Position numbers and translations under genes: made by a program | In this document: positions 17 through 5,022 of the stretch, in pieces | Layout: each line of letters starts with the position of its first letter | Position numbering within the stretch: the first letter of the stretch is position 1 | Notes under the pieces: generated by a model | The model's database searches: none | Told to the model about the DNA's origin: nothing | What the model saw: the letters and a program-made list of their open reading frames with translations, nothing else | Assembly (NCBI RefSeq): GCF_038025025.1 | Contig: NW_027117342.1 | Span: 1,054,001-1,118,000 of the forward strand | Source of the DNA: Phyllosticta citribraziliensis | Taxonomy: Eukaryota | Length of the DNA: 64,000 nt | Direction: 5' to 3'

Positions 17-952
17 ATGGCTTCGCAAACGCCACCCAACTCCACGTAAGTTGTATTCATGTCTAAGTCGTCTCCGCTAGCTAACAGCTCACAGTGTCTA
101 CGTCAGTATCTCGGTCAGAAATGCGCCCGCCCTGCTAACGCCCCAAGCAGGTCAAGAACCTCGAGGAGCGCATCAAGATTCCCGAGTTGAAGGAAGCGCT
201 GCTCGAAATCTTCAGCGAATATGGCAACGTCATCGACATTCGCGCAGCGAAGAACCTCAAATCCAAGGGACAGGCTTTCGTCACCTTCGAGAATGTAGAG
301 TCAGCCGCGCGCGCCATTGAGGAAATCAACGAGTTCGACCTCTTCGACAAGCCGATGAAGCTGGATTTTGCCAGGACTCGCAGCGACGCGACTGTCAGGA
401 GGGAGGGCAACGAGGAGGATTTCGAGGCACACAGGCGCCGAAGGCTTGCGGAGAAAGGTACATCTCAGATCCCATTGCACTGCGGGATCAGATGGGTCCT
501 TGCTTTGCGTTTTGACGTGTCGCTCTTTGGTGAGTAGTATGCTTACACATGCAACAGAAAGGAAGCAGGCCATCGAGGCCCAGGAGAAGCAGAAGCAGTT
601 GAAGCGTCCTGCGGGCGCTCCCGCGCAGCCCGAGAGGCCCGCCCAGAAGGCGCGTGGTGCTGGCCTCAAGTCGACCGGCGCTGGAGGCGCTGTCATTCCC
701 GACGAGTATCTCCCGCCCAACAAGATCCTGTTCGTGCAGAACCTGCCCGATGGCTACGATGTCGAAGCGCTCTCGGCCATCTTTGGCCGCTTCGAAGGCT
801 TCAAGGAGGTCCGTCTTGTGCCTGGACGTGCCGGCATTGCCTTTGTTGAGTACGAGGCTGAGTCTGGTGCCATTTCCGCCAAGGAGGCCACTGCTGGCAT
901 GGCGCTTGGTGATGAAGGCAAGCCCGTCAAGGTCACTTACCAGAGGCAGTGA
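17..952 (+). CDS. U1 snRNP protein A / U2B''-family two-RRM spliceosomal protein (most likely U1A)
   Basis: Exons 17-45, 95-101 (7 nt), 151-457, 558-952. Spliced protein MASQTPPNSTVYVKNLEERIK...KSKGQAFVTF (RRM1, RNP2/RNP1) and PDEYLPPNKILFVQNLP...FKEVRLVPGRAGIAFVEY (RRM2), typical of the U1A/U2B''/SNF family. GT-AG introns 46-94, 102-150, 458-557. Confidence 0.92.
461..494 (+). promoter_or_regulatory. Intronic RNA hairpin mimicking U1 snRNA stem-loop II (putative U1A-binding autoregulatory element)
   Basis: CATCT-ca-GATCCC [ATTGCACTGC] GGGATC-AGATG: perfect 6-bp stem plus a 5-bp lower stem, with a 10-nt loop starting AUUGCAC and closed by C-G. The lower stem covers positions +4 to +8 of the intron 3 donor. 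Confidence 0.7.
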
Positions 953-2078: not shown

Positions 2079-2447
2079 GACGGGCTGCTGGCAAGAGGGT
2101 GACTGGGGCGAGTTGTCCGGACGAGCGTTTCAATCGCGATGAGTGAGCCAAAGGATGTGCGGCAATAGTTGCCAGCCGTTGTGAAGCGTGATGCGAATGG
2201 TCCCGTCCCCGCTTGTTGGTGTTCCATACGCACGCCGCGGAGGCCTGAGCTACCTTACGTCGTCGGCATTGGCCGGCCGGGCCTCGCGCTAAGCAACACG
2301 AAGTCCAAGCGACCCTGCGCCAGAAGTCGAGCTCCACACCTCACCAATTCATCGCCAACTCGAACGACCCCAGAAAGTCGCCCACGCCACCCTCTCGCGC
2401 GCCTCTCCGGCCTGCATCCAGGCCAGCAACGCCCGTCTGACCGAGCG

Positions 2448-5022
2448 ATGCCTGGAGAGCTTCTGAGGAACGTTGGCAACTCCGCCGCTGCCGCCGCCGT
2501 GCCGAAGACGAAGCGCATCATGCCCGACCGGCCCTCCGACTTGTATCTGATCTCCGAGTCAGATGGCGTCTATGAGCAGGAGCTCATCCGTAATCCGGGC
2601 AGCATCAAGCCATGGCTGGATTACGTCGCCTTCAAGCGCCAGCATGGCTCGGTCCTCGAGCAGGCCTTCGTTCTCGAGCGCGCCTGCACCACGCTGCCGC
2701 GCTCCTACAAACTGTGGAAGATGTATCTGGAGCTGAGGACTAGGCATTTGAAGGGCAAGAATCCAGCCAAGTACCAGGCCCACTACGTCAAGGTCAATGC
2801 TCTGTTTGAACGCGCTCTGGTGCTTCTGAACAAGATGCCAAGAATATGGGAGATGTATCTGGAATTCCTGATGCTGCAGCCTATGGTCACTACAACGAGG
2901 CGCACTTTCGATCGCGCGCTGTGCGCATTGCCTCTGACGCAGCACAACCGGATTTGGGCTCTATACCGGCCTTTTGCCAACTCTGCGTCCGGCGAGACTG
3001 CCGTCAAGATCTGGAGACGGTACATGCAGATCCATCCGGAACACGCCGAGGATTTCATTGCTTTACTGGTCGACATGCGGCAGTACACTGAGGCCGTCAA
3101 GCGATACATGGACATACTCAACAATCCCAGATTCAAGAGCAAGGAGGCAAAGGGGCCGTTTCAGTTTTGGACCGAAATGGTCGAATTGCTCATTGACCAC
3201 GCGACGGAAATTGAGACGGGCGACGACGTGGGGATCGACGTCGAAAAGATTATTCGGAGCGGTATTGCAAAGTTTTCGGACCAACGAGGGATTCTCTGGG
3301 TTGGTCTGGCCCGCTACTGGATCAACAAGGGCGACTACGAGCGCGCTCGCGACGTTTTCGAAGAAGCCATCACCACCGTCATGACGGTCCGCGACTTCTC
3401 CATCGTGTTTGATACGTACGCCGAGGCCGAAGAAGCGTTGATTGGTATCAAGATGGAGGAAGCGTCCAAACGACAAGAGAAGGGTGTGATGGATGAGGAG
3501 GCAGATCTTGATTTAGACATTCGGATGGCTCGCTTTGAACAGCTCATGGATCGTCGGCCGTTCCTCGTCAACGACGTGCTTTTGAGGCAGAATCCCAACA
3601 ATGTCCCTGAATGGGAAAAACGTGTTGGCTTATGGGGAGACAACAAGGTGGAGGTCGTCAAGACTTACACTGACGCCATTGCGACCATCAATCCGAAGAA
3701 GGCCATTGGACAGTTCCACGAGCTCTGGGCCAACCATGCCAAGTTCTACGAAAGAGCGGGCGATCTGGACAACGCCCGCATCATCATGGAAAAAGCCACC
3801 AAGGTTCCGTTCAAATCCGTAAACGAACTTGCGGAAATGTGGTGCGAGTGGGCGGACATGGAGCTAAGGAACGAGAATTTCGACCGCGCAATCGACATCA
3901 TGGCCAAGGCTACCCAGGCGCCAAAGAGATCGACAGTCGACTACTTTGATGAAACGTTATCACCCCAGCAGAGAGTGCACAAGAGCTGGAAGTTGTGGAG
4001 CTTCTACGTCGACTTGGTCGAGAGCGTCAGCACGCTGGAAGAAACGCGCAAAGTCTACGAAAGGATCTTTGAGCTTCGCATTGCCACGCCTCAGACCGTT
4101 GTCAACTATGCGAATCTGCTCGAGGAAAACAAGTACTTCGAAGAGTCATTCAAGATTTATGAGCGCGGTCTCGATCTCTTCAGTTACCCGGTAGCATTCG
4201 AGCTCTGGAATCTCTACCTCACCAAAGCGGTGGACCGAAAGGTCAGCATCGAGAGGTTACGCGACTTGTTTGAACAAGCGCTCGAGGACTGCCCGCCAAA
4301 GTTTGCAAAGACACTTTACTTGATGTACGGTGCACTCGAGGAGGAACGTGGCCTTGCTCGTCACGCCATGCGCATTTACGAACGGGCAACCCGCGCAGTT
4401 GCCGACGAAGATCGCTTGGAGATGTTCAACTTTTACATCACCAAGTCGGCGTCCAACTTTGGACTCACTTCGACGCGTCCAATCTACGAGCGCGCCATTT
4501 CTGCACTCCCCGACCACGAAGCCAAGGACATGTGCCTCAAGTTTGCAGAAATGGAGCGGCGACTGGGCGAAATCGACCGTGCAAGGGCCATTTACGGCCA
4601 TGCAAGCCAGTTTTGCGACCCGAGAACGGAGCCAGGGTTCTGGCAGAAATGGGAAAGCTTCGAAGTGCAACACGGAAACGAAGACACATTCAAGGAGATG
4701 CTTCGCATCAAGAGAAGTGTCCAGGCACAGTACAAGTATGTTGACTGTTTGATTCGCTTGAGCATGCAGCTAACAGCATGGCAGCACCGACGTCAGCTTC
4801 ATTGCCTCGCAAGCCCTGGCTCGCAGCCAGCAAAACGGCGGCGAGGGCGCCATCGGTTCCGAGCAAGAAAAGATCGACGCCATGGCGGCCCTTGAGCGAC
4901 AGGCTCGGGCGCCCGAAGGATTTGTGCCTGCGACAGGTGGAGTTCAGGGAGGTAGTGTCGCGCAGCCAGAGGCAGCTGCGGCAGCGAACCCGGATGCGAT
5001 TGACGTTGACGAGGATTTGTAG
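2448..5022 (+). CDS. SYF1: Pre-mRNA splicing factor Syf1/Cwf3 (NTC component, HAT/TPR repeats)
   Basis: [91 protein letters not shown]. One intron 4736-4784; stop TAG 5020-5022. Start may instead be ATG 2520. Confidence 0.95.

Follow-up and report, generated by a model that had tools for sequence, protein, structure and literature searches.

A U1 snRNA stem-loop II look-alike at splice signals of the U1A gene in Phyllosticta and other filamentous ascomycetes, a candidate sensor of free U1A

The DNA analysed here (the window) is a stretch of 64,000 nucleotides of Phyllosticta citribraziliensis (contig NW_027117342.1, positions 1,054,001 to 1,118,000 of the forward strand), which near its left end carries a gene for U1A, a U1 small nuclear ribonucleoprotein (snRNP) protein; in this gene a hairpin resembling stem-loop II of U1 small nuclear RNA (snRNA) lies at the 5′ splice site (donor) of the third intron. 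The gene is of the usp102 type and occupies 17–952 on the + strand, from the ATG at 17 to the TGA at 950–952, as delimited from the sequence and its reading frames, Pfam matches to RNA recognition motifs (RRMs) and the exon joins of public proteins. Its exons are at 17–45, 95–101 (a micro-exon of 7 nt), 151–457 (RRM1) and 558–952 (linker and RRM2). Introns 1 and 2 (46–94 and 102–150) are each 49 nt in length, and intron 3 (458–557) is a phase 1 intron of 100 nt with GT..AG ends, the donor GTACAT at 458–463, the acceptor AG at 556–557 and, going by sequence only, a likely branch region TGCTTAC at 540–546. Retention of intron 3 would extend the open reading frame (ORF; 139–537) into an in-frame TAG at 535–537, with a predicted product of RRM1 plus 26 intron-encoded residues.

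Pfam placed an RRM_1 domain in each of the two large exons. RRM1 of the window gene was aligned with human U1A (PDB) over residues 14–111 at E = 1e-21, and the human U1A residues Q54, F56, L49, T89 and D92 are all identical in it. The nearest public proteins, P0001–P0003, are from Phyllosticta, are named usp102 or U1 snRNP, share 97–98% identity with the window protein and bear out the exon joins, including that of the 7-nt micro-exon. Judged by these alignments, the protein is a member of the U1A/U2B''/SNF family. A first-pass annotation of the window had already named the gene U1A, located the hairpin, its loop, the donor, the branch region and the intron, and pointed out the TAG reached on retention; on re-reading of the sequence all of its coordinates and motifs were correct, and both the gene assignment and the read-through into TAG were borne out.

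The hairpin spans 461–494 on the + strand and was found in both the minimum-free-energy and the centroid structure. Its lower stem, CATCT (461–465) paired with AGATG (490–494), spans donor positions +4 to +8 and is followed by a CA bulge (466–467) and an upper stem of GATCCC (468–473) paired with GGGATC (484–489). The 10-nt loop ATTGCACTGC (474–483) is closed by the pair C473–G484 and begins, on its 5′ side, with ATTGCAC at 474–480, the heptamer of U1A RRM1. Whether 40 or 120 nt of context are folded, the structure of lowest free energy is this hairpin, with −13.5 kcal/mol for 458–497. A closing C–G pair has a role in U1A sites of the U1 stem-loop II type. U1A RRM1 is described as recognising AUUGCAC on top of stem-loop II (PMC6325900, PMC9977717). 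Like that stem-loop, the window hairpin has a loop of 10 nt that opens with AUUGCAC and is closed by C–G; unlike it, the hairpin lies outside any snRNA and its stem is made of splice-signal sequence.

ATTGCAC as such is not enriched in the window, where 10 copies were counted on both strands against 8.4 expected. Only one of these ten, the copy at 474 in U1A, opens a loop of 8–13 nt closed by at least 4 bp, and there is no second ATTGCAC in the gene region 1–1200. The combination of heptamer, hairpin loop and U1A gene is beyond chance. Rfam gave nothing relevant in the gene region (E up to 10) or in the whole window (gathering scores), and no U1 match in the window or in five hairpin-bearing loci of other fungi; low-score matches to mir-207, a Glutamine-II fragment, sR2 and s2m were dismissed as chance.

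A set of 80 loci on metagenome contigs, fetched with an RRM1 alignment query blind to the hairpin, was scanned for hairpins with ATTGCAC at the 5′ end of the loop and 4 bp or more closing it. Such hairpins hold 27 of the 32 ATTGCAC copies on the gene strand and 5 of the 12 on the other, where every case has 4–5 bp and an off-register loop. In 26 of the 80 loci the intron-1 donor (GTACGT, GTATGT, GTTCGT or GCACGT), at times together with the final bases of the exon, forms the 5′ arm of a 7–11-bp stem that carries a 10- or 11-nt loop of ATTGCAC plus three or four further bases. Three more loci (L002, L003, L006) have an intron-1 donor hairpin with an ATTGTAC loop, and in one (L013) the contig starts within the 3′ arm. 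In one locus (L024) it is intron 2 whose end bears the hairpin; here the 3′ arm contains a CTGAC branch motif, 5 nt before the acceptor. Seven loci (the L053 group) have an ATTGTAC hairpin in intron 1 with a branch-like CTGAT motif in the 3′ arm; this is the looser case, since the predicted fold closes a loop of 8 nt. By their best named protein matches the donor-type loci include Leotiomycetes (Hyaloscypha-, Calycina- and Scytalidium-like), Sordariomycetes (Podospora- and Colletotrichum-like) and one Taxawa-like locus. The scope is wider than first seen, as hairpins of the predicted form lie over other U1A splice signals in many filamentous ascomycetes.

Beyond these loci, a scan allowing one mismatch returned only the L053 group and isolated hairpins of 5–6 bp far from the gene, on either strand. 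A covariance model of the hairpin, R1, scored the window hairpin at 36.4 bits (E = 1.9e-6), having been built partly from the window sequence. It found no copies beyond its building sequences and their duplicates, which is weak evidence of absence because the model is dominated by the intron-1 type. The ATTGTAC loop occurs in two unrelated lineages (L002/L003/L006 and the L053 group), where the site may have been weakened or its sequence may follow a U1 loop that differs in those species.

Twenty-four distinct hairpins, that of the window included, were aligned. Standard pairs fill 94.4% of the alignment cells, and in 8 of the 9 stem pairs both partners vary. All 24 rows have C–G as the closing pair, the heptamer is ATTGCAC in 23 (ATTGTAC in one), and the loop is 10 nt long in 21 rows and 11 nt in 3. 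None of 500 column shuffles reached any of five covariation measures, sliding the 3′ partner by 1–3 columns left pairing at 8–62%, and RNAalifold independently predicted the same helix. In the row of L039 the aligner introduced a shift of one column, and this reduces the covariation count and does not raise it. Informative changes come from GTACGT/ACGTAC versus GTATGT/ACATAC, for which L077 has a G–U intermediate, and from the stems of L024, L039 and the window, which are unrelated.

These stems might also work on their own, as a structural attenuator that slows the use of a splice signal, for splicing timing or low basal expression, without U1A. The intron-1 stems, of 7–11 bp, are stable alone by prediction (−13 to −16 kcal/mol, z = −2.2 to −4.5) and bury the entire donor, and the intron retention described below was observed without information on U1A level. 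Such an attenuator would, however, have no need of a fixed loop, yet ATTGCAC and its C–G pair are held on unrelated stems (window, L024, L039 and two donor types), and the last loop bases drift (TCC, ATC, ATCC, ATT, ACC, TGC, CCC) while the heptamer holds. The element is, moreover, found in U1A itself, both in the loci (27/32 gene-strand copies) and in the window (1/10). We therefore consider an attenuator independent of the protein unlikely.

All 80 locus matches stop at the position of intron 3; an intron in the same phase is present there in 66 loci and none in 14. The first-pass annotation had read the window hairpin as a stem-loop II mimic in a feedback loop, and had set as a test the conservation of the AUUGCAC loop, on covarying stems, in the orthologous intron across Pezizomycotina. 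The heptamer was found in 0 of the 66 orthologous introns 3. Covarying stems with a fixed loop were recovered across hairpins at several splice signals (8/9 pairs) and not within orthologous intron 3, so that the proposal of mimicry and feedback draws its support from recurrence, covariation and retained contigs, while the hairpin itself is not kept in the 66 orthologous introns 3.

The best of the 80 loci are only 64–74% identical to the window and close relatives are missing from the set; these were reached through public ORFs that run from the RRM1 exon into intron 3. The hairpin read-through in the P. citricarpa model P0003 is identical to that of the window. The Logan ORFs P0207 and P0244 depart from the window in 9 of 57 residues of the exon, but their first 17 intron codons are identical (17/17); downstream of these the sequences diverge, with 1 of 5 aligned residues the same. 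The more distant ORF P0239 retains the pattern PLH..G.RW..AL, preceded by two extra codons. Intron 3 was also aligned in two relatives with gene-wide identities of about 87% and 93%: the first shows a single 1-nt deletion and the second none, whereas their introns 1 and 2 have several indels or are replaced or unalignable. By the read-through codons and indel comparisons, change in the 5′ half of intron 3 is slower than in the adjoining exon, in this lineage only. From these sequences the intron-3 hairpin is specific to the Phyllosticta lineage and one further relative.

It could be argued that in this organism the hairpin resembles stem-loop II by chance or is neutral, say as a functionless fragment of the U1 snRNA gene copied into intron 3, irrespective of any role of the intron-1 hairpins in other fungi. 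Its lack of conservation beyond the lineage and its modest folding z-score agree with this. A neutral sequence would, on the other hand, hardly keep 17 of 17 read-through codons beside an exon with 9 of 57 residues changed and then diverge directly downstream, nor be partly kept in P0239. The hairpin also sits exactly on the donor, and the same design recurs at other splice signals of the orthologous gene. A look-alike without function is accordingly given very little weight.

Other candidate structures and signatures near the intron-3 donor were not of this kind. Near-motifs in lichen-like loci (GTTGCAC, AATGCAC, CATGCAC) form no comparable hairpin and are probably chance, and the signatures 'LH', 'IAx' and 'xCT' in about 120 ORF read-through tails were unspecific except in P0003, P0207 and P0239. 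In the Glonium-like loci L004, L010 and L075, where the first 35 nt of intron 3 were examined, a different hairpin, GGGA...TCCC, was seen just after the donor; its loop is only loosely heptamer-like (AATAGCAG) and is not kept in L075.

Contigs that may derive from RNA were examined for the use of intron 3. One contig of X1 skips exactly 458–557, with GT..AG ends (it joins 455/556, with 100 nt skipped), at a mean word depth of 2979, and its exact skip demonstrates the presence of cDNA in X1. A second X1 contig is unbroken across 428–585, with intron 3 retained, at a mean word depth of 1969; the flanking contigs have depths of 7141 and 10033. The form retaining intron 3 is clearly not rare in X1. 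Runs X11, X16 and X18 carried no RNA information.

Three metagenome contigs (L063, L049 and L051) resemble assembled transcripts, in that two convergent genes are without introns; L063 retains only the hairpin intron of U1A. In L063 (Colletotrichum-like) the convergent gene for V-ATPase subunit D is one unbroken ORF of 255 codons, as in a cDNA, while it is interrupted at two places in five Sordariomycete loci (L038, L069, L070, L071, L076). U1A intron 3, read through in a Colletotrichum gene model, is also missing from L063. This contig keeps the hairpin-bearing intron 1, in which a TAG follows immediately after the hairpin, and the frame ends after about 17 codons. In L049 and L051, from hairpin-free lineages, both convergent genes are fully spliced. 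The pattern of L063 may instead be due to loss of the other introns in the source species and not to splicing.

Taken together, the hairpin is in our judgement probably a cis-acting sensor of free U1A, which would mediate negative autoregulation by occlusion of a splice signal. It copies the primary target of U1A, the 10-nt loop AUUGCAC-NNN closed by C–G of U1 stem-loop II, and a splice signal of the U1A pre-mRNA lies within its stem or right beside it. U1A in excess of what U1 snRNA takes up would bind the loop through RRM1 and lock the stem. In Phyllosticta this would hide the putatively weak intron-3 donor (+4 to +8) from U1 snRNA, so that the intron is retained; at the other loci the bound mimic would hide a donor or branch site, with retention and an early end of the frame. 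The retained Phyllosticta transcript, ending at the TAG at 535–537, would be degraded or give only RRM1 with a short tail, and less full-length U1A would be made for that reason. Negative feedback seems the best reading because the U1A loop has repeatedly been set on a stem built from a U1A splice signal.

That the hairpin binds U1A or U2B'' for some other purpose, such as co-transcriptional recruitment, help to splicing or nuclear retention together with an internal U1 site, is a slim prospect: a donor-like consensus GTGAGT does lie inside intron 3 (530–535, + strand), 28 nt upstream of the acceptor and too near it to splice, and the vertebrate U1A 3′ untranslated region (UTR), going by a cited title only, also joins U1A sites with a U1 site, but at the majority of loci the bases of the donor or branch motif are paired within the stem, which speaks for occlusion and against help, and the retained forms stop early.

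On a broader scale we lean, with less assurance, towards a movable riboregulator that keeps U1A of filamentous ascomycetes in balance with U1 snRNA, the mimic apparently having been installed several times independently over whichever splice signals were at hand. Plausibly, it would then occupy the donor of intron 1 in Leotiomycetes and Sordariomycetes, a branch site of intron 2 in one lineage that is Dothideomycete-like, and the donor of intron 3 in Phyllosticta.

Besides the missing heptamer in orthologous introns 3, a number of points weigh against feedback by occlusion. That U1A binds, which way the effect runs and what becomes of the retained RNA are inferences. The sign of the feedback is not self-evident, because the retained product keeps an intact RRM1 that might still bind RNA. 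Three RNA-contact residues of human U1A are changed in the window protein (S46A, S48N, K23I). The folding energy of the window hairpin alone is unremarkable: 11 of 200 shuffles fold at least as well in the 40-nt context (z = −1.86) and 12 of 200 in the 120-nt context (z = −1.75). Its stem is weaker than the intron-1 type (−13.5 versus about −16 kcal/mol) and covers the donor at +4 to +8 only. Since occlusion is thus partial and the product keeps RRM1, the window version may act more weakly or differently. Independent covariation events are few, because most of the changes stem from few lineages (window, L024, L039 and the GTATGT group), and the conservation of intron 3 in the relatives of about 87% and 93% identity rests on indels and translated ORFs. 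The likeness to the U1 loop is drawn to human U1. That X1 is RNA is a guess, and it bears the same organism label as the best holders; its contig depths are poor measures of level, and with introns 1 and 2 not covered X1 offers no internal control. Finally, 42 of the 80 loci have no mimic anywhere in the DNA fetched (5 of these are without any upstream intron and 3 are cut short upstream), among them every Aspergillus-, Penicillium- and Exophiala-like locus and the greater part of the lichen-like ones, so that the feedback is not universal.

The gene shows further features of structure and annotation. The 7-nt micro-exon, NGTCTAY (part of T-V-Y), is flanked by short introns and kept in many Pezizomycotina U1A genes, for example at 95–101 of the window and in L004, L005, L009, L014, L020 and L024; in Leotiomycete and Sordariomycete loci the second intron is lost and the hairpin is on the first. 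GC-AG introns occur in U1A, with the intron-1 donor GCACGT of L017 lying within the hairpin and GC donors at intron 3 in L022, L032, L064 and L069. The P. citricarpa model P0003 (269 aa) uses GTGAGT 530–535 as a donor, which adds 24 intron-encoded residues; the resulting 28-nt 'intron' is unsupported, as that joint is in no X1 contig, and GTGAGT could be a non-productive U1 site. Hairpin introns would explain why public U1A models often read through or misplace introns. In several Aspergillus annotations (P0033, P0038, P0045–P0048, P0053, P0054, P0059, P0099) U1A is fused to the adjoining gene for tubulin-folding cofactor D, giving proteins of about 1400–1450 aa that are probably gene-model errors.

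Two neighbouring genes were identified. The convergent neighbour of U1A, at about 1104–2340 on the − strand of the window, encodes V-ATPase subunit D (Pfam ATP-synt_D on the L063 orthologue), and this synteny is present in most of the 80 loci. The next gene, at about 2169–4895 on the + strand, encodes the pre-mRNA splicing factor SYF1 (HAT repeats, E = 3e-194).

Autoregulation through a mimic of a protein's own RNA target is a known principle. For vertebrates, copies of the AUUGCAC loop are described in U1A pre-mRNA, the polyadenylation inhibition element (PIE), which are bound by excess U1A and lower its synthesis (PMC6884704, PMC5829640, PMC9977717), and in plants U1A is reported to leave its own mRNA unbound (PMC5829640). 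The fungal hairpin would share with PIE, as described there, the protein family and the logic of target mimicry. PIE, in these accounts, lies in the 3′ UTR and has two heptamers in internal loops, with two U1A molecules bound and poly(A) polymerase inhibited. Unlike it, the fungal hairpin is intronic (intron 3 at 461–494; introns 1 or 2 in the loci) and presents a single heptamer in a terminal 10-nt loop, and the step affected would be splicing. PIE further keeps a set spacing upstream of the poly(A) signal and acts on poly(A) polymerase via the C-terminal region of U1A. The commonest loop among the loci is the decamer that the first-pass annotation had quoted for human U1.

Among the ribosomal-protein genes with splicing feedback, RPL30 of yeast (old name L32) has a motif that is a kink-turn-like internal loop, the primary target of the protein being rRNA. 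L30 is described as blocking the splicing of its own pre-mRNA by binding this mimic of its primary target at the 5′ splice site (PMC5640933, PMC8216456). The U1A hairpin is like it in that the mimic lies on or next to a splice signal of the gene that encodes its protein (donor +4 to +8 here, the whole donor in 26 + 3 loci, the branch motif in L024), and unlike it in protein, RNA motif and clade, and in that an snRNA and not rRNA is mimicked. By this analogy, the L30-type splicing block of yeast is seen as the closest mechanistic counterpart. Balance through unproductive splicing of the component's own transcript or that of a partner is also described for U11-48K with U11/U12-65K (a U11-binding enhancer) and for the cross-regulation of U1C and U1-70K (PMC5473595, PMC3798272). 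As in those loops, so far as they are described there, a spliceosome component would be balanced through unproductive splicing; unlike them, where the assembled snRNP is sensed or animal alternative exons are used, the free protein would be sensed in fungi by an snRNA mimic.

The first-pass annotation knew of no description of such an element in filamentous fungi, and this agrees with the lack of a match in Rfam and in the literature, although the subscription journals were mostly outside the search and an earlier report is possible. The two comparative screens of structured RNAs in fungi (PMC5640933, PMC8216456), searched by term in the text available, do not mention the element. What appears new here, as supported by the sequence comparisons, is U1A target mimicry over splice signals in fungi; autoregulation by mimicry of a protein's RNA target was already known.

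The matching of snRNP proteins to snRNA supply is, to our knowledge, known for few components, and U1A feedback only in vertebrates, where it acts through polyadenylation. If the reading given here is correct, the movable riboregulator would be a fungal, splicing-based counterpart of the vertebrate PIE, and snRNA mimicry would have arisen convergently within one gene. The hairpin is compact, sequence-defined and easily mutated, which makes it a candidate switch in genetically tractable fungi. It lends itself to work on the competition of a bound protein and a hairpin with U1 or branch-point recognition, and is a candidate for a natural splicing module that responds to a protein. U1A feedback would then answer an old need, its molecular solution would differ by kingdom, and within the filamentous ascomycetes that solution would move between the introns of one gene.

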